A stretch of 64,000 nt of DNA from Alphaproteobacteria bacterium (GCA_965232515.1 CBDDPY010000002.1:2528001-2592000), one strand, 5' to 3'; positions 286 to 23,275 are shown, counted from the stretch's first letter. Notes: generated from the letters alone by a model not told the origin. Numbers and translations: made by a program.

Positions 286-750
286 ATGCCGAAGAAACAG
301 CGCCCCTTCGACGATCCCGCCGTCAAGGCCGTGTTCGACGCCTATCCCAGCCCGCTGCGCGCCGACCTGCTGGCCCTGCGCGCCCTGATCCTCGACACGG
401 CGTCCGCGACCGACGGCGTCGGCCCGCTGGTCGAGACGCTCAAATGGGGCCAGCCGTCCTACCTGCCGGCACGCCCGCGCATCGGCACGACGGTCCGCAT
501 CGACGCGCTGAAGGACCGCCCCGGCGGCTACGCGCTTTTCGTGCACTGCCAGTCCCGGCTGGCCGACACCTTCCGCCAGCACTACCCCGGCCAGTTCACC
601 TTCGAGGGCAACCGGGCGCTGCTGTTCACGAGCGGGCAGCCACGTCCCGACGACGCCCTCAAACATTGCATCGCGCTCGCCCTCACCCATCACCTGCGCA
701 AGCGCCGGCCGAAGGCCGGGCATGACAAGGCGGCGGCGAACGTCCGATAA
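286..750 (+). CDS. DUF1801 (YdhG-like) domain protein
   Basis: ETLKWGQPSY and FTFEGNRALLF...LKHCIALALTHH motifs; GGAGA RBS before ATG. Confidence 0.8.
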   Translation: MPKKQRPFDDPAVKAVFDAYPSPLRADLLALRALILDTASATDGVGPLVETLKWGQPSYLPARPRIGTTVRIDALKDRPGGYALFVHCQSRLADTFRQHYPGQFTFEGNRALLFTSGQPRPDDALKHCIALALTHHLRKRRPKAGHDKAAANVR

Positions 751-784
751 TCCGCACGGGGGTCGGATCGACAGGAAGCGCCAC

Positions 785-1219
785 GTGATCGAGTCCGCCG
801 GAAGCAAACGCCGCGGCCAGTGCCTGTGCGGCGGCGTCGCGTTCGAGATCGCCGTGCCCAGGCCCAGCTACCACGTCTGCCATTGCGGCATGTGCCGCCG
901 CTGGGGCGGCGGCCCCTGGATGTCGGTGATCTGTCCCGGCCCCGCCACCTTCATCTCGGACGCGACGCTCGCCTGGTACCGGGGCTCGAAATGGGCCGAG
1001 CGCGGCCACTGCACCAAGTGCGGTTCCAGTCTGTTCTTCCGCCTGGCGGCCAAGCCCGACGCCGTCACCGCCATCTCGGTCGACGCCTTCGACGACAACG
1101 CCGACTTCACCCTCGGCCGCCACATCTACGTCGACGCCCAACCCGCCCGCTACGCCTTCGCCGACGACTGCCCCCGCCTCACGGAGGCCGAATTCCAGGC
1201 CGAGATGCGGGGTGGTTAA
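785..1219 (+). CDS. GFA / CENP-V family zinc protein
   Basis: GQCLCGGV, CHCGMCRR, RGHCTKCGSSLF and HIYV motifs; start GTG785, or ATG722. Confidence 0.85.
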   Translation: MIESAGSKRRGQCLCGGVAFEIAVPRPSYHVCHCGMCRRWGGGPWMSVICPGPATFISDATLAWYRGSKWAERGHCTKCGSSLFFRLAAKPDAVTAISVDAFDDNADFTLGRHIYVDAQPARYAFADDCPRLTEAEFQAEMRGG

Positions 1220-1242
1220 GGCCGGCGGCGCAAAGGCGTGAC
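1123..1242 (+). repeat. Copy 1 of a diverged ~115-120 bp direct repeat (3' end of the GFA gene)
   Basis: Aligns by eye with 2180-2293. Confidence 0.85.
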
Positions 1243-1279
1243 AAACCTCGCATAATGGGCGGCAACGGACGGCAAGTCT

Positions 1280-2083
1280 TCACGGGCTAGCGGCCCGGGC
1301 TTCATAACGAACCCAGCGATAGGACCGCTCATCCCGATAGCCAAGCTTCCGGGCGACGCGTATCGAGGCGGTGTTGGTCTGATGACAACTCCAGTAGGTT
1401 GGAACGCCTTCCCTCGTATAGCTTCTGATGAGAGGTGCACAGGTGATCGCGGCGAAGTTGCAGCCTCTATGGCCCTGCTTGGTGAAGACCACCAATTCCA
1501 CGCGCCCCGCGCCCTTAAACAGGCCGTAGGCTTCACTCAACATCTCGTCGTGATGCATCAGACACATGCCATGGCAATGCGCAAAGAAACGATCGGCGCT
1601 TCCACAGGCGGCAAGAATTTCGCCATGCCAGAGGCAGCGCGCCAGGAGGCTTCGGTCGATCGGCACGATCCGATAGCAAGCGGGTAGCGACTGCATGAGC
1701 CCGTCGGCGTCGTCGAAATTTGGATCACGGGCGGTAAACTCGAGCCGGCTAACAATGCGGCTGTGGTTGGAAGGGAGTGATCGCGCCTCGAATTCCGCCT
1801 CGGAAATCACCAGTCGTATGGCCCCTTTCCTGCGAGAAGCCAGGACGGCGTCCGCCAGAAAACCGTCCGTCACCCGGCCGCCAAAAAACGTCGCGCCATA
1901 GTGCGTGCGGACAACCGCTTGAGAGGGCGAGGTCGCGCTGTCAACCAGCGCCAATCCAGGGTAGCGGCCTTCCAGTGTCGCAAAGAGCATCGTGTCGTTT
2001 GGCCTTCCGGGGGCGAACAACCTGACAAGCTTTGGGCAGGTGGTCGGACACGACTGCATCTTGCGACTATAGAGGCTGGCCAA
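1280..2083 (-). CDS. GNAT family acetyltransferase
   Basis: C-terminal HRGCNFA...WSCHQTNTASIRVARKLGY GNAT motif; lower GC than flanks; start uncertain. Confidence 0.75.
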   Translation of the reverse strand: MASLYSRKMQSCPTTCPKLVRLFAPGRPNDTMLFATLEGRYPGLALVDSATSPSQAVVRTHYGATFFGGRVTDGFLADAVLASRRKGAIRLVISEAEFEARSLPSNHSRIVSRLEFTARDPNFDDADGLMQSLPACYRIVPIDRSLLARCLWHGEILAACGSADRFFAHCHGMCLMHHDEMLSEAYGLFKGAGRVELVVFTKQGHRGCNFAAITCAPLIRSYTREGVPTYWSCHQTNTASIRVARKLGYRDERSYRWVRYEARAASP

Positions 2084-6864: not shown

Positions 6865-7461
6865 TTATTTCAGCAGCCTGTTAGTCGATTTTTCGCGGTT
6901 CGCATCGCGAGCCGTCGACGGCTCGCGCGCGGTGCCGCCCTCGATCCGGGTGAAGGTGCGGATCTGATCGCCGATCGATACGGCGCGGCGGGCGCTGTCG
7001 AGCCAGGAATAGACCGTGGCGCCGAGAATCATATCCACCCGCGCGCCGTCCGACGCCAGCGGCAGCAGGATGCATTCGCCCGGCGTCGGCTTGTCCGTGT
7101 CGGCAAAAAGCCAGCCGTCGATGTGCACGACGCACGGCTGCTCGACCGCCTGCCGGAAGCAGTAAGCGACATCTTCCGTCGCCCTCGGCGGCTCGATCTC
7201 GTCCAGAAACCGTCCCGTGACATTGTCACGGTAGGCATGGCGCACGTGATCGCCCATCAGCCGGTAGCGGAAGCGGCCGACCTCGGGCAGGTAATCGCAG
7301 AGCCAGACGAACGGCAGCAAGCTCGGTATCTGCGTGGGATCGATGTCGGCGCGCGCCGGCATGGCGCGGGCGCCCGCGGCCGCCAGCCAATAGGCAATCA
7401 GGTCGCGCAGCGGCAACTGCTCGACATGATCGAAGCGTTCCATGGTCAGGCGCATGGGCAT
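6865..7461 (-). CDS. PAS domain protein (PAS_5-like)
   Basis: LIAYWLAAAGARAMPARADIDPTQIPSLLP...FRYRLMG...ECILLPLASDG; start chosen after GAGGG. Confidence 0.75.
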   Translation of the reverse strand: MPMRLTMERFDHVEQLPLRDLIAYWLAAAGARAMPARADIDPTQIPSLLPFVWLCDYLPEVGRFRYRLMGDHVRHAYRDNVTGRFLDEIEPPRATEDVAYCFRQAVEQPCVVHIDGWLFADTDKPTPGECILLPLASDGARVDMILGATVYSWLDSARRAVSIGDQIRTFTRIEGGTAREPSTARDANREKSTNRLLK

Positions 7462-7717
7462 GGCCCTCGCGGCGCACGGTATTGACGCGGGCATGCCCGG
7501 CCGCCCGAAGCGGTGCTGGGACATTGAAAATCGGTCAAGGCGTTCCTCGAAGTACTTGGTTGTCATCACGACAATCCCCCACCCGAACCGTCACAATTGC
7601 CGATGCCTGCAAGCTAGACGATGCTTGCGCCGCGGTCTTTGGATCGGTGTCTCAAGTTCGTGGTATGGCAGTCTCATCTTCCGGGAAATCTGCGTGGCGA
7701 TGCGAGCTAGCAACGAG

Positions 7718-8809
7718 TCAGGTCGATGACTGACGGTCCGATGCCGTTCCAAGTTGATCCAGCCACCACAGCTGAGGCAGCGCCGCCCGCCCATAGGCCC
7801 CGGCCTTCTGGCGCCCGCACCGCGCCGACGCGACGGCCTCCATCGCATCGATCGGCGAAATGCCGAACCGCTCGCGGAAGCTGCGGCTGAAGTGGCTGGC
7901 ATCGAAGAAGCCGAGACGTTCGGCGACGCGGCTGATGCGGCCGCGCTGTGGCGGGCCCGCGGAAAGCAGCGTAAAGGCGCGGTCCAATCGCCGGTCCCAG
8001 AGATAGCGCGCAACGCCGCCATGGTCGGCGAAACAGCGATAGATCGTCGCCCGCGACGCGTTGAACGTCCGGAACAACTCACCGGTCTCGAAATAGGGAT
8101 TCTCGAGATTCTCGTCGATGTAGCGCCGCATGGCCTGAGCCAGCGAGGCATTCCACCCCGCCGTGGTATCGTCCGGCGGCTGTGCGCCATCGGTGTCCGA
8201 TCCGCCCAGCAGAAATGCCCGGATCAATCCCAACAGACCGTTGGCCAGTGCCTCGGCCTCGCCGACCTTGGCGTTCGGCAGGGCATCGATCAGACCGTTC
8301 AAGGCCGCGACCAGGACGCGGCCCGTCGACGTATCGGTTGAATCCGTGATCGTGTCCCCGTGCCGGCGCCGATCGAAACCGATCGCCTCGCGGGGAATGA
8401 TGACGGTGGTGTGCCGGACCGCTGAGTTGACGACCCGAAACGGCAACGACATGTCGGCCAGATGCAGATTGCCTGGCCCCAGGCAGATCAGGTCGTCGCC
8501 GACAATGCCCTTCGCGAAACCGCTTTGGTAGTGCCACAGCACGACGAACTCGGCGGACAGGCCGGCAAGGTGTTCGGCGCGGCGCTCGGATATGCGGGCG
8601 CTGGCCTGGGTTTCCATCACCGCGATCTGGCCAAGCTGCCAGGAACGGATCCGGGCAGCGACGTTTTCGCGCTCTTGCGGCGCGACCTTCATGTCGATGA
8701 TGTCCCGCGCTGCTGTATGCCAGGCCTCGAACCGGTCTTCCGGCCCGAAGGCGGCGAGATCGAAACACCGCACCGGCAGGCGGTCGTCGGCGACAGTGTT
8801 CTCAGGCAT
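7718..8809 (-). CDS. AraC family regulator (FeaR-like N-domain)
   Basis: YIDENL...SRATIYRCF...RRLDRA...ISRVAERLGFFDASHFSRSFRERFGISP. Confidence 0.88.
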   Translation of the reverse strand: MPENTVADDRLPVRCFDLAAFGPEDRFEAWHTAARDIIDMKVAPQERENVAARIRSWQLGQIAVMETQASARISERRAEHLAGLSAEFVVLWHYQSGFAKGIVGDDLICLGPGNLHLADMSLPFRVVNSAVRHTTVIIPREAIGFDRRRHGDTITDSTDTSTGRVLVAALNGLIDALPNAKVGEAEALANGLLGLIRAFLLGGSDTDGAQPPDDTTAGWNASLAQAMRRYIDENLENPYFETGELFRTFNASRATIYRCFADHGGVARYLWDRRLDRAFTLLSAGPPQRGRISRVAERLGFFDASHFSRSFRERFGISPIDAMEAVASARCGRQKAGAYGRAALPQLWWLDQLGTASDRQSST

Positions 8810-9237
8810 GAAACAAACGCCCCGTCGGCTCATGGGGCATCGGAACATGCCGGCTGCGGGCCGGCAGAATCTTGGCTTGGCGCATCAGTCGTTACCCGTT
8901 TCAAAGACCTGTTCAACACCCTTCAGTGTCTCTACCAAGCCCACGGGATCCGACCAACCAGCTATGATCACTGGTTTGTATTTTGAGATTTGTTGCGACA
9001 ACAAATCACGACTTAGCGCGACAATCAAATACATTATCGTTTCGCGACGAAATCTTCCTTGCATCGTGGACCGATCGAACATCAAACGACCAGAGGTCGT
9101 TGCCGACGCCGCGGCCGCCATTTATCCCCAATCTTGTAGACTTGCCAAATGAATAGCTGCTCTGCACATCAGTATACAAATCCATCCATAAGGCGTATGA
9201 TTTAAGAGCATCAATAAAACTCATAGAGAGGCTGAAG

Positions 9238-9723
9238 ATGATTAAGCCAGCTACGAGTTTTATGTTGTGTTCTTTTCTAGTTTTATTCCCCTTCGATAAG
9301 TTATCGGCGGCCGAGTACGACCTGACCGGCTCGAACTGCTATCATGGCGAATACAACGTCATAGTCAGAGGCAAGGGCGATTTCTCGCTCAGCTATGTCC
9401 TGCACGGCGCATCAACCTACGACGACGAAAGCGTTCCATTCCGTCACATGGCGACACGCTGCGTCGGCCTTTATGCGCTCAGGAACGGCGAGATCGAATC
9501 ATATGCGCACTGCGAGATGATCGACGGCGACGGCGACAAGCTCTTCGTCCTCGGAAATGCGCGCGGTCAGCAAAACAGCGGGACGTTTCCCGGCGGGACG
9601 GGCAAATTTGAAGGTGTCACGGGCACGTTCACCTCCGAACCCGTTGGGCGTTTTCCCGAGCCCGAAGAGCGTAACTTCGTTGCCTGCCGCCGGCATCACC
9701 ACACGTTCACGCTGCCCGATTGA
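9238..9723 (+). CDS. Secreted hypothetical protein, possible dirigent/allene-oxide-cyclase-like beta barrel
   Basis: Signal peptide; CEMIDGDGDKLF and GGTGKFEG motifs; paralog of the next gene. Confidence 0.7.
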   Translation: MIKPATSFMLCSFLVLFPFDKLSAAEYDLTGSNCYHGEYNVIVRGKGDFSLSYVLHGASTYDDESVPFRHMATRCVGLYALRNGEIESYAHCEMIDGDGDKLFVLGNARGQQNSGTFPGGTGKFEGVTGTFTSEPVGRFPEPEERNFVACRRHHHTFTLPD

Positions 9724-9780
9724 GGTCCGGTTCGATTTACGTAACCGGGAACGCAACAACACATCTCGAGGAGAACGATC

Positions 9781-10260
9781 ATGCTGAACAGGTATGTCAT
9801 GTCCGCCCTCGTGGCGTGTACGGGTTTGACCTTTGGCGCATCAGGCGCCGTTGCTGGTGATGTGAGTTGGCGAAGTTGCTGGGCCGGCACGAGCCAGACC
9901 GTCGTGCGCGGCGAAGGCGACCTCTCTTTCAGCACGGTGTTTTTCGGAACCACGGTGACCGATGATCCGGCGGATAAGCTGCACATGTCGTCCTTCAAAT
10001 GTGTGTCGGCGGGCGACATCCACGGCGGGAAGGCGGTCAGTACCGGCTATTGCCAGTCGGTGGACGCCGACGGCGACAAGTTCTTTTCGACCTACGAAGT
10101 GGTCGACGGCGCCGGTCCCCTGACGTTTACCGGCGGTACGGGCAAGTTCGACAAGGGCTCGGGCGTCGTTCAGATAAAGACGATTGGGCAGTTCCCGGGC
10201 ATTGAGTCGGGCAAGTTCCAGGGCTGCAACAACGGAAAGGGGTCCTACACCCTCCGCTAG
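9781..10260 (+). CDS. Secreted hypothetical protein, paralog of 9238-9723
   Basis: GAGGAG RBS; signal peptide; CQSVDADGDKFF and GGTGKFD motifs. Confidence 0.75.
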   Translation: MLNRYVMSALVACTGLTFGASGAVAGDVSWRSCWAGTSQTVVRGEGDLSFSTVFFGTTVTDDPADKLHMSSFKCVSAGDIHGGKAVSTGYCQSVDADGDKFFSTYEVVDGAGPLTFTGGTGKFDKGSGVVQIKTIGQFPGIESGKFQGCNNGKGSYTLR

Positions 10261-10284
10261 CTGCCGGCCAACGGATCCGCCGCC

Positions 10285-11010
10285 TCAGATCTGCCGGTCG
10301 CGGATGGCGATAATGGCGGCGTGGTGCTTGTTGCGGGCGCCGAGCTTTCGCACCGCCTTGCCCAGGTGATAATTCACCGTCGAGGCGGCGACGCAGATGA
10401 TCTCGGCGATCTCGTCGGTGGTCTTGCCCTCGGCGGTCCAGCGCAGGCATTCGCGCTCGCGCGCCGACAGCGCCGGCATGGCGGTCGTCTCGTCGCCGCG
10501 CAGAAAGCCGATCATCCGGTCGTGCACCTGCACCGCGGTCAGCTGTAGTGCGTTGCGTCGCACCGCGACGGCATCCACTAGGTCCCGGCTGCGGGTGCCG
10601 ACCACCGAGAACACGCCGATATCGCCGTCCGGCCCCGAGACCGGCACGGAATAGCCGTTGACGATGCGGAACTCGCGCGCCTCGTAGAAGATCTGCCGCT
10701 GTGACTTGCGGAACGGCCGGAGGAAGCCATCGCTGCCCCAGGTGAACGGCAGGCGCGATCGCGCGCCCAGATCGGCGACGGGGTCGTAGAGCTTGTAGGA
10801 CCGGCCGAGATAGCGGCTGCGCCATTCCTCGGGATAGTTCGTGACCAGCGTGGAATCGGTGTTGCCGCGCGACGAACGCGGCATGCGCAGAACAAGGTAG
10901 GAGTAGTACGGCAGCCCCAGATCGCCGACATAGCGCTCCAAGACCCGGCCGACCTCGTCCGGCGAGCCGCAGGTCTCAAACGGATTATGATCGATCGCCG
11001 GCAATGACAT
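10285..11010 (-). CDS. LuxR family regulator with autoinducer-binding domain (no luxI in window)
   Basis: TNYPEEWRSRY, YDPV, LPFTW, NGYSVP; HTH LSARERECLRWTAEGKT...KLGARNK; start ATG11010. Confidence 0.92.
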   Translation of the reverse strand: MSLPAIDHNPFETCGSPDEVGRVLERYVGDLGLPYYSYLVLRMPRSSRGNTDSTLVTNYPEEWRSRYLGRSYKLYDPVADLGARSRLPFTWGSDGFLRPFRKSQRQIFYEAREFRIVNGYSVPVSGPDGDIGVFSVVGTRSRDLVDAVAVRRNALQLTAVQVHDRMIGFLRGDETTAMPALSARERECLRWTAEGKTTDEIAEIICVAASTVNYHLGKAVRKLGARNKHHAAIIAIRDRQI

Positions 11011-11239
11011 TTGTCTTGCTGCTTTGTGGCCACCCCGCCGTGCCGCCGAACGGTAACATCCGGATTGGCCCGGCAACAAGACAGCGACGACCGGTAATTC
11101 GAAGCAGGAATGCGCCATTTCAAGCCGTTTTCGGCCGAAATCGCGTGCTTTTTGCAAACTTTGCCAGTGTACGGCCGGCTTTGGCGGTGCTTTTCTGAAG
11201 GTTCGACCGATGACAAGGCTTCTGACAGGGAGAACAGAC

Positions 11240-12493
11240 ATGTCGTCACTCAGAAATCGGGGTCGCCGCTGGGCCGCCACCGTCGGTGTCGCGGGCGGGA
11301 TCGCCGTGGCCGCCTGGTCGGGCGCGCTGGCCGACACCGTCAAGATCGGCGTGCTGGCGCCGCTGACCGGTCCGTCGGCGTCGGACGGCGAGGAATTCGT
11401 GCGCGGGGTCGAATGGGCCGTCGAGGAGGCGAACGCCAAGGGCGGCGTTGCCGGCCATACCTTCGAGGTCGTGGTCGCCGACGTGAAGGACCATTCCGCC
11501 GCCAACGTCAGCAGCGCCGCCGAACGCCTGCTCGGCACCGATGGCGTGCACGTGATCCTGACGGGCTACGCCAGCCTGTCGATGTTCGAGGTCGATCTCA
11601 TGGCCGAGGCCGGCATGCCCTATCTCGCCGCCGGGCCGTCGCCGTCCTTCGCCGCCATCGTCTCGCAGGACCCGGACTATTACTGGTGCTGCTGGTCCTA
11701 CACCGCGTCCTTCAAGGGCTACGAGACCGACGTGCTGCCGGCGATCGAGAGCCTGGGCGCGCAGGGCAAGATCGCCATCCGCGACAAAAAAGTCGCGATG
11801 ATCTCGTCCGACAACCCCTATTCCAAGACCATCTCGGAGGGCATGAAGAAGGTCTTCGACGCCGCCGGCTGGCAGATCACCGTCGACGAGATGGTGCCGT
11901 TCGGCGAGGTCGGCGACTGGCGCGCGATCCTCGCGAAAGTCCGCCAAGACCCGCCGGATCTGGTCATCAACACCGACTATCTGCCCGGCAATTCGGCGCT
12001 GTTCCTGAAGCAGTTCCTGGAGAAGCCGACCGACAGCGTCGTCTTCCTGCAATACGCGCCGTCGGTGCCCGAGTTCGTCGAGCTGACCGGGGCGCAGTCG
12101 ACGGGCGTGCTCTACAACCTGATCGGCGGGCCGCTGGATTCGCCGGGCTGGCCGCGCGGCCAGAAGCTGATGCGCGCTTTCGAAGAACGCTATGGCGTGA
12201 CATCGGGCGCCTACGGCGTCGGCCTCTACGAGATGACCAACATGTATTTCATGGCGCTGGAAAAAGTCGGCGACCCGACCGACCACGAGGCCATCGGCCG
12301 CACCATCGGCACGCTGAAGACCGACTCCGTCGCCGGGCCCATCGAGTTCGATCCGGCGACGCACGTGGCGCTGCAAAGCGACGACCACGTGCCGGTGTCG
12401 TTCTGGCAGATCTGGGACGGCGATCGCGTGCTGATCAAGCCCGACAAGTACGCCAACGGCGATTTCCGGCTGCCGCCCTGGATCGCGCAATAG
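11240..12493 (+). CDS. Liv/HAAT-type ABC transporter substrate-binding protein
   Basis: Signal peptide; VKIGVLAPLTGPSASDG...EANAKGGVAG; GGGAG RBS. Confidence 0.88.
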   Translation: MSSLRNRGRRWAATVGVAGGIAVAAWSGALADTVKIGVLAPLTGPSASDGEEFVRGVEWAVEEANAKGGVAGHTFEVVVADVKDHSAANVSSAAERLLGTDGVHVILTGYASLSMFEVDLMAEAGMPYLAAGPSPSFAAIVSQDPDYYWCCWSYTASFKGYETDVLPAIESLGAQGKIAIRDKKVAMISSDNPYSKTISEGMKKVFDAAGWQITVDEMVPFGEVGDWRAILAKVRQDPPDLVINTDYLPGNSALFLKQFLEKPTDSVVFLQYAPSVPEFVELTGAQSTGVLYNLIGGPLDSPGWPRGQKLMRAFEERYGVTSGAYGVGLYEMTNMYFMALEKVGDPTDHEAIGRTIGTLKTDSVAGPIEFDPATHVALQSDDHVPVSFWQIWDGDRVLIKPDKYANGDFRLPPWIAQ

Positions 12494-12526
12494 CCGGCGT
12501 CACGCGCTGGTGTAACCTGCTTGGCC

Positions 12527-13273
12527 ATGGCTGAGGGGGGCAGAGAAACGCTGTTCCGCGCCGAGGGACTGGTCAAATCCTTCGGCGCGCTGACCGCGGT
12601 CGACGACGTCGGCTTCGCGGTCGCGGCCGGCGAGATCCTCGGCATCGCCGGCCCGAACGGCAGCGGCAAGAGCACGCTGTTCAATATCATCACCAACGTG
12701 CCGTTCCGGGCCGACCGCGGCCGCGTCGTCTTCGAGGGCCGGGAGATCCAATCGCTGCCCGGCCACGAGATCTGCCGCCGCGGCCTCGCCCGCACCTTCC
12801 AGCGCGAGAGCGTGTTCGCTAGCCTGCGCGCCATCGACAACGTGCTGACCGCCATCGAGCATAGCGGCGGGCGCGGCACCCAGGCCGAGAACGAGGCCCG
12901 GGCCGAGGCCGCGCTCGACCGCGTCGGCTATCCCGGCACCATGCACAACACGTTGGCGGGCGGCCTGCCGGTGTTCTTCCGCAAGCAGGTGATGATCGCC
13001 AGCGCCATGGCGCTCGGGCCCCGCCTCCTGCTGCTGGACGAGCCCGCCTCCAGCCTGACCCAGGCCGAGGTCGACCGCATGCGCGACCTGATTCTCGGCC
13101 TGCGCGATGCCGGCGTGACGATCCTGTTGATCGAGCATGTTCTGCCGCTGCTGACCGCTGTGTCGGACCGCCTGATCGTCCTCGACCAGGGCCGCCTGAT
13201 CGCCGAGGGCGCGCCGCGCGACGTCGTGCGCGACCCGCGCGTGGTCGAGGCCTATCTCGGGGTCGCCCCATGA
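12527..13273 (+). CDS. LivG-like ABC ATPase
   Basis: GPNGSGKST, GLARTFQ, LLLDEPA, LIEH, DPRVVEAYLG. Confidence 0.9.
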   Translation: MAEGGRETLFRAEGLVKSFGALTAVDDVGFAVAAGEILGIAGPNGSGKSTLFNIITNVPFRADRGRVVFEGREIQSLPGHEICRRGLARTFQRESVFASLRAIDNVLTAIEHSGGRGTQAENEARAEAALDRVGYPGTMHNTLAGGLPVFFRKQVMIASAMALGPRLLLLDEPASSLTQAEVDRMRDLILGLRDAGVTILLIEHVLPLLTAVSDRLIVLDQGRLIAEGAPRDVVRDPRVVEAYLGVAP

Positions 13274-14064
13274 CCGGCGCCGCGCCGTTGCTGGAGTTGC
13301 GCAAGCTGTCGGGCGGCTACGAGCCGATCCAGATCTTCCGCGACGTCGACCTGCGCGTCGATCCCGACAGCAGCATCGGCCTGTTCGGCCCCAACGGCCA
13401 CGGCAAGACCACGTTGCTGCGCACCGTCAGCGGCATCATCGACCCCTGGTCCGGCGATATCTTCTTCGACGGCCAGCGCCTGAACCGCGAAGGCGAGCGC
13501 GGCAGCCGCCGCTCGCGCAACTTCAACTACGACGCCGTGCGCCGCCGCCGCATGGATCCGAAAACGGTCGCGCGGGCCGGCCTGATCCAGGTGCCGCAGG
13601 GCAACCTGCTGTTCCCGGAGATGACCGTGGCCGAGACCCTGTCGGTGGCGCCGGCCGCCGCCGCCGGCCGCGCCGACGCCAAGGAATCGCTCGCCCGCGT
13701 GCACGACCTGTTCCCGCGCCTGCACGAGCGCCGCGACCAGAAGATCCGCTTTCTGTCCGGCGGCGAGCGGCAGATGGTCGCGGTCGGCGTCGGCCTGATG
13801 GCGGCGCCCAAGCTATTGATCCTGGACGAGCCGACACTGGGCCTGTCGCCGAAGCTGCGCCTGGAGCTGTGCGACGCGATCCGCGCTATCCAGGCCTCTG
13901 GCGTGCCGCTGATCGTCGTCGACCAGGACGTCGAGTTCCTGGAGCAGATCATCGATACGCTCTACCTGTTCGACCACGGCAGCATCTCCGGCCGCATCGA
14001 CAAATCGGACATGCCGTCGCACGCCGAGATCATGGCGATGCTGTTCGGCGAGCCGGCCGCATGA
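13270..14064 (+). CDS. LivF-like ABC ATPase with an Arg-rich insertion
   Basis: GPNGHGKTT, LFPRLHER, LSGGERQMV, ILDEPTLGLSP. Confidence 0.88.
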   Translation: MTGAAPLLELRKLSGGYEPIQIFRDVDLRVDPDSSIGLFGPNGHGKTTLLRTVSGIIDPWSGDIFFDGQRLNREGERGSRRSRNFNYDAVRRRRMDPKTVARAGLIQVPQGNLLFPEMTVAETLSVAPAAAAGRADAKESLARVHDLFPRLHERRDQKIRFLSGGERQMVAVGVGLMAAPKLLILDEPTLGLSPKLRLELCDAIRAIQASGVPLIVVDQDVEFLEQIIDTLYLFDHGSISGRIDKSDMPSHAEIMAMLFGEPAA

Positions 14065-14945
14065 CCGCCGAAACGTTCATGTTCGTCACGGCCGGCGGCC
14101 TGGTCCTGGGCGCGCTCTACGCCCTGATGGCGACCGGCCTTGCCGTCGTCTGGACCACGTTGGGCATCTTCAACTTCGCCCACGGCGCCTTCATCGCCGC
14201 CGGCGCCTATATCGCCTGGCAGGTCGGCGGCGCGCTCGGCGACGCGGTCGTCGCCGGCGCCCTCGCCGCCGTCGCCTTCATGTTCGTCATCGGCGTTCTG
14301 TTCCACGTGCTGCTGGTGCGGCCGTTCGAGCGGCAGCCCAACCTGGTGCTGATTTCCGTCATCACCACGCTCGCCGGCGCCGCCGTCCTTGAAAACCTGC
14401 TGAACGTGATCTGGGGCGCGCGCTCGAAGCAGATCCCGCCGCTCGCGGCCGGCGACCTCACGGCCTTCGGCGTCACCGTCTCGCACAACGAGGCCGTGCT
14501 GCTCGTCGTCGTGCTGGTGATCCTGGCGCTGCTCGGCTACTTCCTGCGCCGCACACCCCAGGGTCGGGCCATGCGCGCCGTCGCCCAGAACCGCGAGGCG
14601 GCCCAGCTCATGGGCCTCGACGTGCCGCGCCTCTACGCGCTCGCCTTCGGCCTGTCGGCGGCGCTCGCCGGGCTCGCCGGCGTGTTCATCGGCTCGATCC
14701 GCTTCATGACGCCCACGATGGGATCGGACCCGCTGCTGAAGGCCCTGATCGTCGTCATCTTCGGCGGCATCGCCCGCTTCACCAGCCCGATCTACGCCGC
14801 CTTCATCGTCGGCATGGTCGAGGCCTTCTCGACCTACTATGTCGGCCTCTACTGGACCCCCGCGGTGCTGTTCGCGCTGATGATCGCCGTGCTGATCGCC
14901 AAGCCCGAAGGCCTGTTCGGCAAATACCAGCGGTCGGTGCAGTGA
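14061..14945 (+). CDS. LivH-like ABC permease
   Basis: GALYALMATGL...IFNFAHG...GRAMRAVAQNREAAQLMG; ATGA overlap with the upstream gene. Confidence 0.9.
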   Translation: MTAETFMFVTAGGLVLGALYALMATGLAVVWTTLGIFNFAHGAFIAAGAYIAWQVGGALGDAVVAGALAAVAFMFVIGVLFHVLLVRPFERQPNLVLISVITTLAGAAVLENLLNVIWGARSKQIPPLAAGDLTAFGVTVSHNEAVLLVVVLVILALLGYFLRRTPQGRAMRAVAQNREAAQLMGLDVPRLYALAFGLSAALAGLAGVFIGSIRFMTPTMGSDPLLKALIVVIFGGIARFTSPIYAAFIVGMVEAFSTYYVGLYWTPAVLFALMIAVLIAKPEGLFGKYQRSVQ

Positions 14946-14955
14946 GACAAAAACG

Positions 14956-16809
14956 GTGAGATACGACCCGCCCTTCCACCGCGGCAACGGCCTGATCCCG
15001 GTGCTGATCGCGCTCGCCGCGCTCGCGGTCTTCCCGCTCATCGTCACCGACAGCTATTCGCGGCATCTCCTGATCCTGGCCTTCGTCTTCGCCGTCGTCG
15101 CGTCCAACTGGGATCTCAGCCTCGGCTTCGGTGGCCTGTTCAACTTCGCGCATGTGGCGCTGTTCGCCATCGGCGTCTACACCTACGGCATTGCCGCCAA
15201 GACGCTCGGCGTCTCGCCCTGGCTGGCGATCCCGCTGGGTGGGCTCGTCGCCCTGGCCGTCGCGGCCACCATCGCGTTGCCCGTGCTCCGGCTCGACGGG
15301 ATCTATGTGATCCTGGTGACGCTCGCCTTCTCGCAGCTGATCTATCAGGTCGTGATCAGCCAGTCCGACATCACCGGCGGCACCTCCGGCATGGTCACCC
15401 TGCCGGCGCTCAAGCTCGGCGACTACCGCTTCGTGCGCGACGGCAAGATCGGCTACTACTATATCGGCCTGGCGCTGCTCGTCGCCTCGACGGCGTTCCT
15501 GTATACCTTCACGCGCTCGCGCTTCGGCCGCGCTATCGTCGCGCTGCGCGACAACAAGTACTACGCGATGTCGCGCGGCATCTCCGAGGCCCGCACGCGG
15601 TTGCTGACCCTGATGGCGAGTGCGCTGTTCACCGGCATCGCCGGCGGCTTCTACGGGTCCTACGTACGCGTCGCCTCGCCCGACGCCTTCGGCCTCGGGT
15701 TTCTCACCCTGCTGCTCAGCATCCTGCTGCTGGGCGGCGCCGGCACGATCTGGGGCCCGGTCATCGCCGCCTTCGTCATCACGCTGCTGTCGGAGGCCAT
15801 CGCCGACCTCGGCGCCTGGCGCAACATCGTCATCGCCGCGCTGATCGTCGTGATCATGGTGTTCTATCCCGGCGGCATCTGGGCCGCCCTGCAGGAGCTG
15901 CGCGAATTCGCCGACGTCAAGCGCACGACGTTCCGCGCCTGGCGTCGCCGGCGGCGCGAAAAGCGCGCGCGCGAGGCCCGCCTCGGCGCCCGCGAGCGCA
16001 TGCTCAAAACGGCGCATGGCGACATCGCCATGGCCGACAGCGGCGGCGACGGACCGCCCATCCTGCTGATCCACGGCAACTCTTCCTGCAAGGAGGTCTT
16101 CGCGCATCAGTTCGCCGCCTTCCGCGACGACCACCGGCTGATCGCCTTCGACCTGCCGGGCCACGGCGTCTCCACGAACGGCGACCCCGAGACCGACTAC
16201 ACCGTCAGCGCCTATGCCGAGATCGCCGAGGCCGTGCTCGACGCGGCGCAAGCGGAAAACCCTGTTGTGCTCGGCTGGTCCCTCGGCGGCTATGTCGCGC
16301 TCGAGCTCGCCGCCCGCGGCCGACGCCCGATCCGCGGCCTCGCCATCACCGGCACGTCACCGCTGAACATCGTGCCCGACGATTTCGGCGCCGGCTACGA
16401 TGCCCACTCGCATGTCGTGCTGGCCGGCAAGCAGTTCTTCTCGGCGCACGAACGCCGCACCTTCGCCGCCGCCACCGCCGGGCCGTACAACGCCGACAGC
16501 GCCTTCCTGCACGACACCGTCGGCCGCACCGACGGCCGCGCCCGCTACTACATGATCGGCAAGCTGCCGGTCATCGACTGGCCGCGCCAGATGCGCATGC
16601 TGCGCGACGGCACCCTGCCGTTCGCCATCCTGAACGGCGCCCGGGACCCGTTCCTGAACCACGCCTATATCGCCGGCCTGACCTATGGCGATATCTGGAC
16701 CGGCCGGCCGCACGACATTCCCGACACCGGCCACGCGCCGTTCTACACCAAGCCGCAGGAATTCAACGCCGCCTTCCGCCGCTTCATGCAAGAGGCCTGC
16801 GGCCTCTAG
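14956..16809 (+). CDS. LivM-like permease fused to a C-terminal alpha/beta-hydrolase (AidH-like putative AHL lactonase)
   Basis: N-part GFGGLFNFAHVALFAIG, ITGGTSG, SRFGRAIVALRDN, LLGGAGTIWGPV; C-part from ~16000 LLIHGNSS, DLPGHG, GWSLGG, RTDGRAR, GHAPF; one continuous frame. Confidence 0.88.
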   Translation: MRYDPPFHRGNGLIPVLIALAALAVFPLIVTDSYSRHLLILAFVFAVVASNWDLSLGFGGLFNFAHVALFAIGVYTYGIAAKTLGVSPWLAIPLGGLVALAVAATIALPVLRLDGIYVILVTLAFSQLIYQVVISQSDITGGTSGMVTLPALKLGDYRFVRDGKIGYYYIGLALLVASTAFLYTFTRSRFGRAIVALRDNKYYAMSRGISEARTRLLTLMASALFTGIAGGFYGSYVRVASPDAFGLGFLTLLLSILLLGGAGTIWGPVIAAFVITLLSEAIADLGAWRNIVIAALIVVIMVFYPGGIWAALQELREFADVKRTTFRAWRRRRREKRAREARLGARERMLKTAHGDIAMADSGGDGPPILLIHGNSSCKEVFAHQFAAFRDDHRLIAFDLPGHGVSTNGDPETDYTVSAYAEIAEAVLDAAQAENPVVLGWSLGGYVALELAARGRRPIRGLAITGTSPLNIVPDDFGAGYDAHSHVVLAGKQFFSAHERRTFAAATAGPYNADSAFLHDTVGRTDGRARYYMIGKLPVIDWPRQMRMLRDGTLPFAILNGARDPFLNHAYIAGLTYGDIWTGRPHDIPDTGHAPFYTKPQEFNAAFRRFMQEACGL

Positions 16810-16841
16810 CGTCGCCGCGCCGGCTCCGCCACACTTGGGCC

Positions 16842-17375
16842 ATGACCACGATCGACACCGACCACCTGCTGCTGCGCCCGTTCGAACCGGAAGACGTCGA
16901 CGCCTACGCCGCGATCCGCGCCAAGCCCGAGGTCGTTCGCTACCTGCCCGGCGGACCCGAGAGCGCCGCCAACGCCCGGGCCAAAGCCGAACAGCTCATC
17001 CCCACCTTCGTCACCGCCTGGCGCGACCCGGGCTACGGCCCCTGGGCCGTGATCGAGCGTGCAACCGATCGACTGATCGGCCATGCCGGCCTGCGCCTGG
17101 TGCCCGAGCTCGGCGGCGAGACCGAGATCCTCTACATGCTCGACAGCGCCTGCTGGGGCCGCGGCTACGCCACAGAGGCGGCCGAGGCCGCCTGCCGCTA
17201 CGGCTTCGAGACCCTCGGTCTCGACCGCCTGATCGCGCTTGCCCTGCCCGAGAACGCCGGCTCGATCCGCGTCATGCAAAAGCTCGGCATGACCGCCGAC
17301 GGCCCGTTCGAGGCCTTCGGCATTTCCGGCATTCGTTATGTCCTTCGCCGGGATCAATGGGAGCAGCGGGCTTAG
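16842..17375 (+). CDS. RimJ/RimL-type GNAT acetyltransferase
   Basis: TDHLLLRPF, WGRGYATEAA, PENAGSIRVMQKLGM. Confidence 0.88.
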   Translation: MTTIDTDHLLLRPFEPEDVDAYAAIRAKPEVVRYLPGGPESAANARAKAEQLIPTFVTAWRDPGYGPWAVIERATDRLIGHAGLRLVPELGGETEILYMLDSACWGRGYATEAAEAACRYGFETLGLDRLIALALPENAGSIRVMQKLGMTADGPFEAFGISGIRYVLRRDQWEQRA

Positions 17376-17643
17376 CCCGCCTTTCTCACCACCCTCATGG
17401 TCTGCGTCGGGCACAGGCGTCTGCTCCGCCAGGAGCGGGCCGAAAAGCGTAGCGGGGACTACGGTTGAGGGCCGCGACGCCGCGGGCGGGCGCCTGCGCG
17501 CGACCCTTCGGGCGGCGCCGTGCTGCCGACAGGGGGCGTCGCGCTGCTTGCCCGATGCCCCACATCGCGCCGCGCAGCGCTCCTGCCCTGTCGGCAGCAC
17601 GACGCCGCGCAGACCATGAGGGTGGTGAGAAAGGCGGGCATAG
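17373..17643. mobile_element. MITE-like element, copy 1 (~270 bp)
   Basis: 32-bp perfect TIRs at 17375-17406 and 17608-17639; inverted homolog at 23272-23543; no transposase. Confidence 0.85.
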
Positions 17644-17728
17644 CCCAACGGCCTGTTCGCGCCCCGCCAAAAACGCTTCCTTAAGCCGGACGGCCTAGGC
17701 TCGCACTGGGGGCAAAGCGAGGCCAGCC

Positions 17729-19009
17729 GTGCAAAAACTCCTCGTGGTCGAGGACTCGACCGTCTTCCGCGCCATCGTCGAACAACAGATCGGCCAGGAG
17801 CTCGGCATCGAGCTGGTGCTGGCCGAGACCATGGTCCAGGGCCTCGCCGCCGTCGAGGGCCGGGCCGACGAATTCTTCCTCGCGCTTCTGGACCTGACCC
17901 TGCCCGACGCGCCGAATGGCGAGATCGTCGACGCCATGCTTGGCCGTGGCATTCCGGTTGTCGTCTTCACCTCGCGTTACGACGAAGCCTTGCGCGAGAC
18001 ATTGCTGGCCAAGAACGTCATCGACTATGTGCCGAAGGACAGTCCGGCCAGTCTGAAATACCTCGTTTCCATGGTCCGCCGCATCCAGCGCAACCGCGAG
18101 ACCACGGCGCTGGTCGTCGACGACTCGGCCACGGCGCGACAGCTCGCCCGGCACCTGCTCGAGCTCTATCAGTTCGACGTGCGCGAGGCCGACAGCGGCC
18201 AGGCGGCGCTCGACGCGCTCGAGGCCGAGCCCGGCATCCGCCTCGTCATCACCGACTACAACATGCCGGGGATGGACGGCTTCGAGCTGATCCAGCACCT
18301 GCGCAGGCGCTTCGACCGGGACGAGCTGGCGATCATCGGCGTCTCGGCGGGCGGCGACGCGCCGTTGTCGGCCAAGTTCATCAAGTACGGCGCCAACGAC
18401 TTCCTCAACAAACCGTACCTGCGCGAGGAGTTCTTTTGTCGCATCTCGCAGAACATGGAGATGCTGGACAACATCCGCGCGTTGCGCGAGGCCGCCGGTA
18501 AGGACTTCCTGACCGGCCTGCCCAACCGCCGGTCGTTCTTCGAGATCGCCGGCGCGCTGCACGCCGCGGCCCGCCGCGACGGCGCCCGCGCCTTCGCCGC
18601 GATGATCGATGTCGATCATTTCAAGCGGGTCAACGACACCCACGGCCACGACGCCGGCGACGCCGTGCTGCGCGAAATCGGCCGTCTCCTGCCGTCTCTG
18701 TTGGTGCGCGAGTCCGACGTCGTCGCCCGGCTCGGCGGCGAGGAGTTCGCGGTCTTCGCCTACGACGTGACGCCGGAGACCGCGGCCTCGTTTTTCGAAT
18801 CGGTCCGGCAGGCGGTCGCCGACGCCGTCATCGCCACGCCGGCGGGCGCCCTCAACGTCACCGTCAGCATCGGCGTCAGCTGCCGGATCGGCGACAGCCT
18901 GCAGCACATGCTGAACGCCGCCGACGCCTGCCTCTACGACGCCAAGGCCGCCGGCCGCGACCGCGTCGTCTCCGACGCCGAACCCGCCGACCTCATGGCG
19001 GTGATCTGA
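17729..19009 (+). CDS. REC-REC-GGDEF diguanylate cyclase response regulator
   Basis: Two receiver domains (LLDLTLPD, ITDYNMPGMDG); DFLTGLPNRR; ARLGGEEF. Confidence 0.92.
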   Translation: MQKLLVVEDSTVFRAIVEQQIGQELGIELVLAETMVQGLAAVEGRADEFFLALLDLTLPDAPNGEIVDAMLGRGIPVVVFTSRYDEALRETLLAKNVIDYVPKDSPASLKYLVSMVRRIQRNRETTALVVDDSATARQLARHLLELYQFDVREADSGQAALDALEAEPGIRLVITDYNMPGMDGFELIQHLRRRFDRDELAIIGVSAGGDAPLSAKFIKYGANDFLNKPYLREEFFCRISQNMEMLDNIRALREAAGKDFLTGLPNRRSFFEIAGALHAAARRDGARAFAAMIDVDHFKRVNDTHGHDAGDAVLREIGRLLPSLLVRESDVVARLGGEEFAVFAYDVTPETAASFFESVRQAVADAVIATPAGALNVTVSIGVSCRIGDSLQHMLNAADACLYDAKAAGRDRVVSDAEPADLMAVI

Positions 19010-20287: not shown

Positions 20288-20586
20288 GCGTCCCCGCCTC
20301 ACGCCTCCACCGTCGAGTATGTCGCCGCCGCCATGCTGCTGTCACGTCGTTATGGGACCGGCCGTCGCGGCCGACCTCATTTTCATGGCGGCTGACGCGC
20401 TCTCATACATGGCCCGGGCGCGGCCGCCTCGCCTGTGAGCCAGCCCACAAAGATCCAGCAAAAACAAGAGCATATTTCCCACGCAGCGAGATTCGCACCA
20501 GGGCAAAGCCGGTGCGACCCGCCGTGAAAGACCGAAAAGTTGGGGACCCAACGACGCGCCGTTCGCGGCGCCCGGAGGAAGCGATC

Positions 20587-21339
20587 ATGTTCAATCTGGA
20601 TCCCCTGACCCTGCTCGACCGATTGGAGCAGGCCGACGACATCGACAATGCCAGCGCCGTGTTCAGCGACACGCTCGGCGAGAGCGGCCTTTGCGACGGA
20701 TTCTACATGCCGCGCGTGCCGGTCGAATGCCCCCGCGCCCTGGCCGAGCCCGACCTCGATATGCTGACCTTCGGCGCGAGGGTCGGCGGCTCCTATTTCC
20801 CCAGCCTCACGGAGCGCATCCGCGCTCTGCCGTTCGACCCGATCACGGCATACCTGAAGAAAAACGCGCGACCCTGGCTCAAGAACGCCGAGACCGATTG
20901 CGACAAGTCGGCGCTGCTCTACCTGGCCGACATCACCCTCGACCACGGCATCTCGGCCGGCGCGCTGTTTCCTATCCACGGGCCCGGCGGCAGCTACGCG
21001 ATCTATGGCATTTACACGGCGCGAGAGGCCCCGGAGGCCTACCGGACCTTGCGCGACCATATGGCCGCGCTCAACCTCGCCGTGCTCTATTTCCACGGCG
21101 CCTGTCACGCCAGGTTCGCGGCGCCGGCGCCTTGCCGTACGGTCGAGCTCGCGCCGCGCGAACGGGAATGCCTGCATTGGGTCGCGGCCGGTGAGAGCAG
21201 CAAACAGATCGCCTATCGACTCGATCTCTCGACCCACACGGTGAACGAGGTGATCGGCAACGCCATGCGGCGGCTGAAGGCCGCGTCGCGGGCCGAAGCC
21301 GTTGCCAAAGCGATCCTGGCCGGCCTGATCGCCCCTTGA
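20587..21339 (+). CDS. Second LuxR-type regulator with a divergent ligand domain
   Basis: LAPRERECLHWVAAGESSKQIAYRL HTH; FDPI and GALFPIHGPGG remnants of the autoinducer-binding fold. Confidence 0.85.
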   Translation: MFNLDPLTLLDRLEQADDIDNASAVFSDTLGESGLCDGFYMPRVPVECPRALAEPDLDMLTFGARVGGSYFPSLTERIRALPFDPITAYLKKNARPWLKNAETDCDKSALLYLADITLDHGISAGALFPIHGPGGSYAIYGIYTAREAPEAYRTLRDHMAALNLAVLYFHGACHARFAAPAPCRTVELAPRERECLHWVAAGESSKQIAYRLDLSTHTVNEVIGNAMRRLKAASRAEAVAKAILAGLIAP

Positions 21340-21435: not shown

Positions 21436-22212
21436 TTGGCTATGTACGAACGATTATCGACGCGTCCGGCCGTGGCATGGAGCCTGGCGATCGTCCTGAC
21501 CACGTTTGGCGGTCTGCCGGCCGTCGCCGTGCCGATCGCCAACATCATGCACGACGCCGCCGGCCGGTCGCAGGCGGCACTGAACTCGGGCGAAACGGAT
21601 TCCGATTCGGACATCACCACGTCGCCCGACGATCTGATCATCTCGGGCGGCAGCCTCGCGCTGACCCAGCCCGGTGTGCAGGGCGCGCTTGCCAGCGGCA
21701 GTGCGCTGTCGCGCATCTCGCTGTTCGATGACACGGCCTCGATCGCCGTGGGTGTCGGCGCCAGCTACAGCCCCAGCTTCTTCGGCGGCGACAATCCGGG
21801 TGGCGACATCGCCGCCGAACTGGAGTCTGTCATCGAGTTCACGGTCGCCGCGCAGGAGGTGTTTTTCGACCTGTTCGCGGTCGAACGCATCAACGGCACG
21901 AATTCGGGCAACTTCACGTCCGTGCTGGAGAATGTCACCGACGGTACCACCCTGTTCTCTCTCGCAACCCCGGTCGGCCGCATCTTCAGTCTCGAGTTCA
22001 CGCTGACCGATGCCGTCGGCGACCTGCTGCGCCTGACCACCATGGGCGAGGCGCTGGCGTCGAGCGAACCAGGCGGATCGTCGGCCACCTTCGACACCGA
22101 CCTGTTCCTGACCATCAGGGCGGTTCCCGAGCCGGGCACGCTCGCCCTGTTCGGTCTGGGTCTGGCCGGTCTCGGCCTTGTCACCCGGCGGCGCGCGCGC
22201 CAGACCGCGTGA
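21436..22212 (+). CDS. PEP-CTERM sorting domain protein
   Basis: N-terminal signal region; C-terminal VPEPGTLALFGLGLAGLGLVTRRRAR; start TTG21436 or ATG21442. Confidence 0.88.
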   Translation: MAMYERLSTRPAVAWSLAIVLTTFGGLPAVAVPIANIMHDAAGRSQAALNSGETDSDSDITTSPDDLIISGGSLALTQPGVQGALASGSALSRISLFDDTASIAVGVGASYSPSFFGGDNPGGDIAAELESVIEFTVAAQEVFFDLFAVERINGTNSGNFTSVLENVTDGTTLFSLATPVGRIFSLEFTLTDAVGDLLRLTTMGEALASSEPGGSSATFDTDLFLTIRAVPEPGTLALFGLGLAGLGLVTRRRARQTA

Positions 22213-22715: not shown

Positions 22716-22991
22716 ATGGCGGAACGTTCGGTCATATCGGTCCACACGACGCCTGATACCCGGGAACGGCTGGAAAAGCTCGCCGAGGCAACCAGACGCA
22801 GCAAGTCGTTCCTCGCCAACGAGGCGATCGAGCAATATCTGGACCTGCATGAATGGCAGATCGCTGAAATCAATGCGGGCCTTGCCGAGTTGGAGCGCGG
22901 CGAAGGCGTGCCGCATGACGAGGTGATGGCCTGGATTGAGTCCTGGGATAGCGAGGACAGAAAGCCAAGGCCGACCGCCAAGAAGGCATGA
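22716..22991 (+). CDS. CopG/ribbon-helix-helix antitoxin
   Basis: RLEKLAEATRRSKSFLANEAIEQYL...WQIAEINAGL...VPHDEVMAWIESW. Confidence 0.88.
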   Translation: MAERSVISVHTTPDTRERLEKLAEATRRSKSFLANEAIEQYLDLHEWQIAEINAGLAELERGEGVPHDEVMAWIESWDSEDRKPRPTAKKA

Positions 22992-23275
22992 GGCTGGTCT
23001 GGTCGCCACGGTCTTTGCGCCATCTCGAAGCGCTTCACGCCTATATCGCCGACCGAAATCCCAATGCGGCAACACGTGTGGTCCGACGCATCGTTCAGCG
23101 CGTGGAACGTCAGCTCTCATTGGCACCCAACAGTGGTCGGCCCGGCCGTGTCGAAGGGACACGTGAGCTTGTCGTACCGCGCACCCCCTTTATCGTCGCC
23201 TACAGCGTGGAGGCGGACCGCGTCGAAATCGTCGCCGTCATTCACGGCGCGATGCGGTGGCCTGAGCAACTCTAG
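22988..23275 (+). CDS. RelE/ParE family type II toxin
   Basis: MRLVWSPR...YIADRNPNAA...GRPGRVEGTRELVV...PFIVAY...AVIHG; ATGA-coupled to the antitoxin. Confidence 0.9.
   Translation: MRLVWSPRSLRHLEALHAYIADRNPNAATRVVRRIVQRVERQLSLAPNSGRPGRVEGTRELVVPRTPFIVAYSVEADRVEIVAVIHGAMRWPEQL

Follow-up and report, generated by a model that had tools for sequence, protein, structure and literature searches.

Introduction

N-acyl-homoserine lactones (AHLs) count as textbook cases of freely diffusing signals. No importer for them has been described at the inner membrane, and few LuxR solos have an assigned role. In this study, we analyzed a stretch of 64,000 nt from an Alphaproteobacteria bacterium (GCA_965232515.1 CBDDPY010000002.1:2528001-2592000, hereafter the window), in which the gene of a LuxR-type regulator is divergent from a five-gene ATP-binding cassette (ABC) importer operon of the Liv type, and the last gene of this operon joins a LivM-like permease to an alpha/beta-hydrolase domain of the AidH family. 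The same set of six genes is found in dozens of bacteria from sea and soil, which points to a system dedicated to sensing, importing, and inactivating quorum signals. From the protein and DNA sequences, we put the probability that the module senses, imports, and hydrolyses AHL-class signals at about 60%. The weaker statement, that a LuxR controls a conserved importer whose fused AidH-family enzyme is active on the molecule brought in, is in our judgement very likely.

In its logic, the closest described system is Lsr of enteric bacteria, where a regulator responding to autoinducer 2 (AI-2) is divergent from an ABC importer operon and intracellular processing removes the signal from the community. 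However, Lsr handles AI-2, uses a ribose-type transporter together with a kinase, an isomerase, and a thiolase, is governed by a SorC-type repressor, and has no known enzyme-permease fusion.

In architecture, the nearest precedent is QsdH from Pseudoalteromonas byunsanensis, where an AHL lactonase lies within an RND efflux transporter and is so fused to an inner-membrane transporter (PMC3466314). However, QsdH has a GDSL fold, the prediction places its lactonase in a periplasmic loop of the efflux pump, and no substrate-binding protein (SBP), ATPase, or linked LuxR is described for it (PMC3466314), whereas the present enzyme has an alpha/beta fold and is predicted at the cytoplasmic end of an importer. 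In addition, the LuxR solos PipR, OryR, and XccR are encoded beside an alpha/beta-hydrolase gene and an ABC importer, and entry of the PipR ligand requires that importer (PMC10134790). These regulators carry the substitutions W57M and Y61W, respond to plant compounds other than AHLs, and are accompanied by a peptide transporter and a separate proline iminopeptidase (PMC10134790; PMC4338825). In contrast, the module described here has intact hallmark residues, a Liv-type transporter, and a fused AidH domain. Meanwhile, FadL mediates long-chain AHL uptake in Sinorhizobium and is a precedent for protein-assisted AHL entry in Alphaproteobacteria, but it is an outer-membrane channel without ATP, SBP, or known signal degradation; protein-assisted AHL entry is known only at the outer membrane, via FadL (PMC9938287).

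In openly accessible full text, including parts of the LuxR-solo surveys PMC4338825 and PMC10134790, we found no description of an ABC importer for AHLs, of an AidH-permease fusion, or of a LuxR-solo group in this context. This agrees with the original prediction, which knew of no described AHL importer coupled to a lactonase. Single instances of the module may have been catalogued without interpretation.

Organization of the locus

The window has a G+C content of about 67%, and its housekeeping genes are typically alphaproteobacterial. The features of the locus are as follows.

10285-11010, minus strand: LuxR-type regulator, 241 amino acids (Pfam Autoind_bind 1.2e-32, GerE 9.2e-17; each exceeds its gathering score)
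11148-11170, no strand: lux-box-like dyad, putative operator, CTTTTTGCAAACTTTGCCAGTG, with the core TTTGCAAA-c-TTTGCCAG at 11151-11167
11240-12493, plus strand: HAAT (Liv)-type periplasmic SBP (Peripla_BP_6 3.5e-44); the open reading frame (ORF) opens at 11210
12521-13273, plus strand: LivG-like ABC ATPase (ABC_tran 1e-22 and BCA_ABC_TP_C 2.6e-10), putative TTG start
13270-14064, plus strand: LivF-like ABC ATPase (ABC_tran 4e-25), start overlapping the LivG stop
14061-14945, plus strand: LivH-like permease (BPD_transp_2 7e-38), its ATG overlapping the LivF stop (ATGA)
14956-16809, plus strand: fusion protein, 617 amino acids (BPD_transp_2 at residues 38-301, Abhydrolase_1/6 at residues 367-606)
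14956-15987, plus strand: LivM-like permease half of the fusion, residues 1-344 (BPD_transp_2 7.9e-41)
15988-16809, plus strand: AidH-family alpha/beta-hydrolase domain of the fusion, residues 345-617, candidate AHL lactonase, predicted cytoplasmic

The SBP gene likely starts at the ATG at 11240 rather than at the ORF opening at 11210: GGGAGA lies just 5' of this ATG, and the encoded N-terminus resembles a signal peptide (MSSLRNRGRRW...ALA/DT, with RR; the slash marks the putative cleavage point). With this start, the spacer between luxR and the SBP gene is 229 bp long (11011-11239). LivG and LivF overlap by 4 bp, as do LivF and LivH, both at junctions of the ATGA type, and the gap between LivH and the fusion is 10 nt. 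Because of these overlaps and short gaps, the five transporter genes should form one operon. The six genes lie where the original prediction placed them, with luxR divergent across a spacer given there as about 230 bp, and the arrangement is real: it recurs with unrelated flanks, far beyond chance. No known RNA or riboswitch was matched at the Rfam gathering threshold between 8500 and 18000. Terminator-like sites between 10000 and 17800 numbered 4 against 3.5 expected, all four on the minus strand.

The HAAT architecture is complete, with a Peripla_BP_6 SBP, two BPD_transp_2 permeases, and two ATPases, one of them with a BCA_ABC_TP_C tail. The module thus shares its five-part architecture and Pfam families with LivJHMGF and UrtABCDE. 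However, its SBP is about 60 residues longer than LivJ, and its LivM carries an extra enzyme domain. Orthology to either system was rejected, since every NCBIfam equivalog score was far under its cut-off. The bit scores against cut-offs were 74/477 for LivJ, 175/362 for LivG, 134/441 for LivF, 96/379 for LivH, and 120/366 for LivM, and 56/493 for UrtA, 146/250 for UrtB, 79.5/296 for UrtC, 141/304 for UrtD, and 151/286 for UrtE. The nearest solved structure of the SBP is 3h5l (E = 2e-50), whereas LivJ was matched only at 7e-06. Orthologues of the SBP are 63-79% identical.

The fused hydrolase

Residues 329-617 of the fusion were used as a phmmer query against all sequences of the Protein Data Bank (PDB). 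The top entries were 4g5x, 4g8b, 4g8c, 4g8d, 4g9e, and 4g9g (E about 2e-55, 192 bits), and the next PDB entry reached 64 bits; the proline iminopeptidase 3nwo was matched only at 1e-07. These six entries are AidH, a metal-independent AHL lactonase of Ochrobactrum, either free or with N-hexanoyl-homoserine lactone (C6-HSL) or ring-opened products (PMC3532132). An AlphaFold (AF2) model of the whole fusion had a mean predicted local distance difference test (pLDDT) score of 73.9, and about 90 across the hydrolase. With this model, the top eight Foldseek chains were all AidH (TM 0.87-0.88, 38-39% identity, E = 1e-20); the next structure was a putative aryl esterase (E = 1e-11, 22% identity). The gap between AidH and all other solved hydrolases is therefore 128 bits by sequence and about nine orders of E-value by fold. 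The domain has an alpha/beta-hydrolase fold with a cap domain and is closest to AidH, so the guess of an AidH-type hydrolase was borne out by sequence and by fold alike.

In AidH, Ser102, His248, and Glu219 form the catalytic triad, and Asn33 and Leu103 form the oxyanion hole (PMC3532132). The corresponding residues of the fusion are S442, H593, D564, N375, and L443; in addition, AidH Trp101 and Phe221 correspond to W441 and F566. The GWSLGG nucleophile elbow, the Ser-His-acid triad, and the other four residues are all conserved in the fusion. AidH stands alone, whereas its relative here extends an ABC permease at the C-terminus and is encoded in an importer operon under predicted LuxR control. 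Across 121 fusions (the window protein and the best 120 of 503 database relatives), S442, D564, H593, N375, W441, and L443 never vary, and 120 of the proteins retain F566. Because the triad is invariant, the domain appears to be under selection as an enzyme. Several AidH tunnel residues are altered in the window copy (M77V, H106Y, F138Y, F189I, and F192L), and Tyr stands at the AidH Phe138 position in 105 of the 121 fusions.

In the AF2 model of the fusion, there are ten membrane helices, from 13-29 through 287-302, followed by a linker helix at 307-343. The loop 187-215 after helix 6 holds 8 lysine or arginine residues, and linker residues 310-345 hold 13. By the positive-inside rule, this loop and linker would place both ends of the fusion in the cytoplasm. 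Thus, the hydrolase would be cytoplasmic, sitting at the inner mouth of the transporter.

Free-standing relatives of the fused hydrolase (270-280 residues, 40-46% identical) are numerous, and the fused domains, 56-70% identical among themselves, make up a separate subgroup. In Variovorax paradoxus VAI-C, the classic AHL-utilising isolate, a free-standing AidH-like hydrolase that shares 37% identity with the fused domain is encoded at 6983-7810 of a fetched region of CP063167.1 (locus L080). It is surrounded by regulators, with no Liv or LuxR genes. Another free-standing AidH-like gene was found at 6947-7804 of a region of the Agrobacterium tumefaciens plasmid pAtG3_79b (locus L079), and on several Agrobacterium and Allorhizobium plasmids such genes lie directly beside repABC, with a gene for a GGDEF protein adjoining. 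No LuxR or Liv genes were seen near the plasmid-borne AidH-like genes in the two contexts inspected.

The LuxR regulator

The LuxR protein of the window aligns over its full length with RhlR, TraR, QscR, LasR, and SdiA of the PDB (E = 1e-23 to 5e-19). All nine AHL-receptor hallmark residues are present. In the alignment, W57, Y61, D70, P71, W85, and G113 of TraR correspond to W63, Y67, D76, P77, W91, and G119, and the DNA-binding hallmarks E178, L182, and G188 correspond to E185, L189, and G195. In a set of 59 sequences (the window protein and 58 orthologues from other genomes), the six binding-domain hallmarks and the position of TraR Y53 are invariant, while the DNA-binding hallmarks persist in 56 (E178), 58 (L182), and 59 (G188). 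In surveys of LuxR solos, exactly these positions serve to tell probable AHL binders apart from solos that have other ligands (PMC4338825). By its domains and hallmark residues, the regulator is thus of the AHL-receptor type. We also considered the plant-associated (PAB) type of solo, which carries W57M and Y61W (PMC4338825, Table 3). This was rejected, since W57 and Y61 are retained in all 59 sequences, the transporter is Liv-type, and the hydrolase is AidH-like.

By its hallmark residues, this LuxR is a candidate AHL sensor, with an AHL as its probable ligand and inducer.

The window encodes a second LuxR-type protein (20512-21339, plus strand; GerE 3.6e-17, weak Autoind_bind 1.5e-08), which has W57L and Y61I and, judged by these residues, is probably not an AHL binder. 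Hence, the conservation of hallmarks in the first LuxR is not a mere habit of this genome. No copy of the operator was found near the second gene in an nhmmer search of the window. A gene for a PEP-CTERM protein (21436-22212, plus strand) comes after it.

The putative operator

A dyad, T(T/A)GCAAA-N0-2-TTTGC(C/T)A(G/T)T, is common to the spacers between luxR and the SBP gene (43 sites aligned), and in some clades it becomes a near-perfect palindrome such as ACTAGCAGATTTGCTAGT. The centre of these palindromes resembles the tra box. The window dyad is centred about 81 bp upstream of the start codon of the SBP gene (11240), and its distance from the LuxR ATG is about 149 bp. An activator site around -40 to -50 of a putative promoter would fit this position.

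Plain consensus counting proved too unspecific, with many 11/16-match sites elsewhere, and was replaced by an nhmmer profile and a position weight matrix (PWM). When the profile was run over 1.28 Mb, 52 of the 58 matches, including all of the top 40, fell in the luxR-SBP spacer, and the dyad at 11148-11170 was the sole match in the window. Since the profile contains the tested sites, a leave-one-out PWM was also used, from which each locus and its near-copies were left out before scoring. The window dyad then scored 34.3 bits against 19.8 for the next best window site. Furthermore, 52 of the 59 LuxR-bearing loci and 13 of the 16 non-seed loci had their overall best site within the spacer, against only one of the eight loci without LuxR. 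This conserved lux-type dyad is a candidate operator, and it strengthens the view that the LuxR would control the operon.

According to clade, the half-sites are 0, 1, or 2 nt apart, and this spacing follows the protein tree. For instance, all 14 seed sites with a 2-nt spacer that are in the tree fall within a clade of 17 (Hoeflea, Sneathiellales, and some Rhodobacteraceae). Such clade-dependent spacing implies that the geometry of the LuxR dimer and its site co-evolved. A sigma-54 promoter was also considered for TGGCA...TTGCA. It was rejected, because the GG-to-GC spacing is 8 or 9 and not the 10 of the consensus, and because the asymmetric arm switches strand between clades.

Conservation and distribution

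The fusion represents a protein family: the best 120 of 503 matches all contain both domains and are 63-93% identical. With one genome for each of 185,579 species, 332 fusion relatives were found among 360 matched stretches. We fetched 78 loci, of which 67 have an SBP gene, and in 66 of these the DNA upstream is long enough for a judgement. Divergently upstream, 58 of these 66 informative loci have a LuxR orthologue (33-51% identical), and the LuxR-bearing loci come from about ten alphaproteobacterial families. The synteny of luxR with the ABC operon, which had been put forward as a check, is thus conserved. Meanwhile, 436 flanking ORFs fell into 337 clusters, the largest of which occurs in only five loci, so the flanks are not conserved.

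The pairwise identities of LuxR and of the fusion are correlated (r = 0.71; Mantel 0/999), a value to which shared ancestry alone contributes; such a correlation is as expected for joint inheritance. In a fusion-protein tree from a quick IQ-TREE run, the absences of LuxR amount to three changes, nested among LuxR-bearing clades. In addition, families are intermixed on this tree, which suggests horizontal transfer of the unit. From these patterns, the six genes most likely form a self-contained, horizontally mobile module. No full-length fusion was found among 72,556 plasmids, which yielded nothing but stand-alone genes of the AidH-like kind (34-37% identity) and a single match to the permease alone.

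The eight loci without LuxR belong to Phyllobacteriaceae or Lichenihabitans (five), betaproteobacteria (two), and a metagenome-assembled genome of Desulfobacteraceae (one). Peptidase_M20 (aminoacylase-type) genes stand beside the operon in all five alphaproteobacterial ones (L061, L073, L075, L076, and L077), on both sides of it in L061 and L073, and an Amidohydro_2 gene is present in L073, L076, and L077. Judging by its family, the M20 type of enzyme could split ring-opened N-acyl-homoserine, which suggests that these loci are a catabolic version of the system. One betaproteobacterial locus, from Rhodoferax (L022), has no divergent LuxR, and a different Autoind_bind/GerE gene lies at 691-1428 (plus strand), about 3 kb upstream on the same strand. 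Its product is 27% identical to the window LuxR.

Proposed mechanism and alternative explanations

We propose the following mechanism. The periplasmic Liv-type SBP would capture the signal, and the LivH and LivM permeases, driven by the LivG and LivF ATPases, would carry it across the inner membrane. There, the AidH-type serine hydrolase, which a basic helix of about 35 residues would link to the C-terminus of LivM on the cytoplasmic side, would open the lactone ring on arrival. Meanwhile, the divergent LuxR solo would bind the intact signal and act about 80 bp upstream of the SBP gene, at the lux-type dyad, and so control the operon, possibly as an activator. Import would then reinforce induction, and hydrolysis would shut it off. 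The purpose might be quenching, eavesdropping, signal turnover, or nutrition. Regulator and enzyme independently appear to point to the same molecule, and they stay together. The idea of a sense-import-destroy system is thus supported in part: each computational test was favourable, while the ligand, induction, import, and hydrolysis remain inferences.

Several observations weigh against an AHL-class signal or against the scheme as a whole. In the usual view, AHLs pass through membranes without help, which makes an ATP-driven importer unexpected, and we know of no Liv-type binding protein that binds AHLs. AHL-lactonase activity in alpha/beta hydrolases can be promiscuous, and no natural role is known for AidH itself. 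The closest solved relative of the SBP, 3h5l, is a structural-genomics entry with the generic name 'putative branched-chain amino acid ABC transporter'. For the regulatory part, the dyad model was built from sites chosen by eye, the leave-one-out test fails in 7 of the 59 LuxR-bearing loci, and a consensus scan of 10000-17800 revealed no sigma-70-like promoter. Furthermore, since 8 of the 66 loci lack LuxR, the transporter and hydrolase can work without it. In the enzyme, the triad acid is Asp where AidH has Glu219. In addition, AidH Tyr160, which makes a hydrogen bond to the lactone ring oxygen and is called key for catalysis by the AidH authors (PMC3532132), is replaced by Phe503 in the window enzyme; of the 121 fusions, 66 have Tyr and 55 have Phe here.

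The alternative that survives best keeps the mechanism but makes the signal the cell's own: the LuxR would answer an AHL produced by a distant luxI, and the module would recapture and destroy it to reset or terminate quorum sensing, not to listen in on other species. Only 64 kb of the genome is in view, so a distant luxI is possible, and many of the host genera are AHL producers. Moreover, a class of LuxR solos answering endogenous AHLs has been defined in a review (PMC10134790). However, no luxI is linked to the module in the loci examined. A LuxI synthase domain (Autoind_synth, PF00765) was found in none of the 74 window ORFs scanned, in line with the original prediction that no luxI is recognisable in the window, and, in other loci, in none of the 112 ORFs of LuxI size that lie no more than 4 kb from the module. 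Because no luxI is nearby, the LuxR is a 'solo' by a local criterion that covers the 64-kb window and these flanks. The module also moves between families independently of its flanks, which argues against a self-made signal. On the evidence from these 64 kb and the other loci, we consider a self-made signal rather unlikely.

Another explanation retains the machinery and changes the ligand to a lactone or ester that is not an AHL, such as free homoserine lactone or a thiolactone, gamma-butyrolactones, or esters of N-acyl amino acids like those of Roseobacter-group bacteria, which the LuxR would then sense. The replacement of Tyr160 by Phe fits this explanation, and so does the SBP, whose family binds amino acids, amides, and aromatic acids. 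The M20 and Amidohydro_2 genes beside the LuxR-less operons suit N-acyl amino acids or peptide-like substrates; indeed, they fit other N-acyl or peptide-like substrates or esters as well as they fit AHLs, and this too counts against our proposal. Furthermore, N-acyl alanine methyl esters exist in Roseovarius (PMC11580390), and SdiA has been proposed to bind homocysteine thiolactone (bioRxiv 2024.11.10.622854). However, solos for ligands other than AHLs usually have substituted hallmarks, like the PAB type (W57M and Y61W; PMC4338825, Table 3), whereas here every binding-domain hallmark is kept in all 59 sequences, and the sole close solved relative of the enzyme is an AHL lactonase. For these reasons, we regard a ligand other than an AHL as unlikely.

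Finally, an ordinary nutrient importer of the amino acid, amide, or urea type under quorum-sensing control, with the fused hydrolase an unrelated esterase or a structural part, is very improbable: all five transporter parts do match Liv/Urt families, and the Joint Genome Institute (JGI) names of relatives read 'branched-subunit amino acid transport ... permease/pimeloyl-ACP methyl ester ...', but the equivalog scores are far under their cut-offs (for example LivJ and UrtA), the invariant triad indicates a domain selected as an enzyme, and both the similarity to AidH and the constant pairing with an AHL-type LuxR would have to be coincidence.

Returning to sensing, import, and hydrolysis of an AHL, we see about even chances for the full picture, in which the module would be the first dedicated ATP-driven AHL importer, its permease-fused lactonase would destroy the signal on entry, a LuxR solo would switch it on, and the whole would be an Lsr-like AHL sink spread horizontally in marine and soil Alphaproteobacteria, with aminoacylase-linked variants feeding the opened signal into catabolism. 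If this is true, a widespread LuxR-solo family of Roseobacter-group bacteria, Rhizobiales, and related bacteria would gain a function and a target operon, and AHL removal could be active, inducible, and of high affinity instead of passive degradation. The fusion would also be a natural permease-enzyme pair in which to study the coupling of transport and catalysis, and the module a compact, transferable quorum-quenching cassette.

Neighbouring genes in the window

A gene for a GNAT acetyltransferase (16842-17375, plus strand) begins 32 bp 3' of the fusion and is followed by a response-regulator-GGDEF gene (17729-19009, plus strand). We considered the GNAT gene as a member of the module and rejected it, since it had no match with at least 50% coverage in the 78 loci. 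On the other side, a stretch of lower G+C content (8001-10000; 0.584 vs about 0.67) adjoins luxR. The ORFs at 8592-9152, 9238-9723, and 9781-10260 have no Pfam match, and the stretch may be foreign DNA or a non-coding region at the boundary of the module insertion.

Farther downstream, an ORF resembling a ParE toxin (22988-23275, plus strand; 1.1e-15) lies within an otherwise unannotated gap. A small ORF (22716-22991) ends at its start and may encode the antitoxin.

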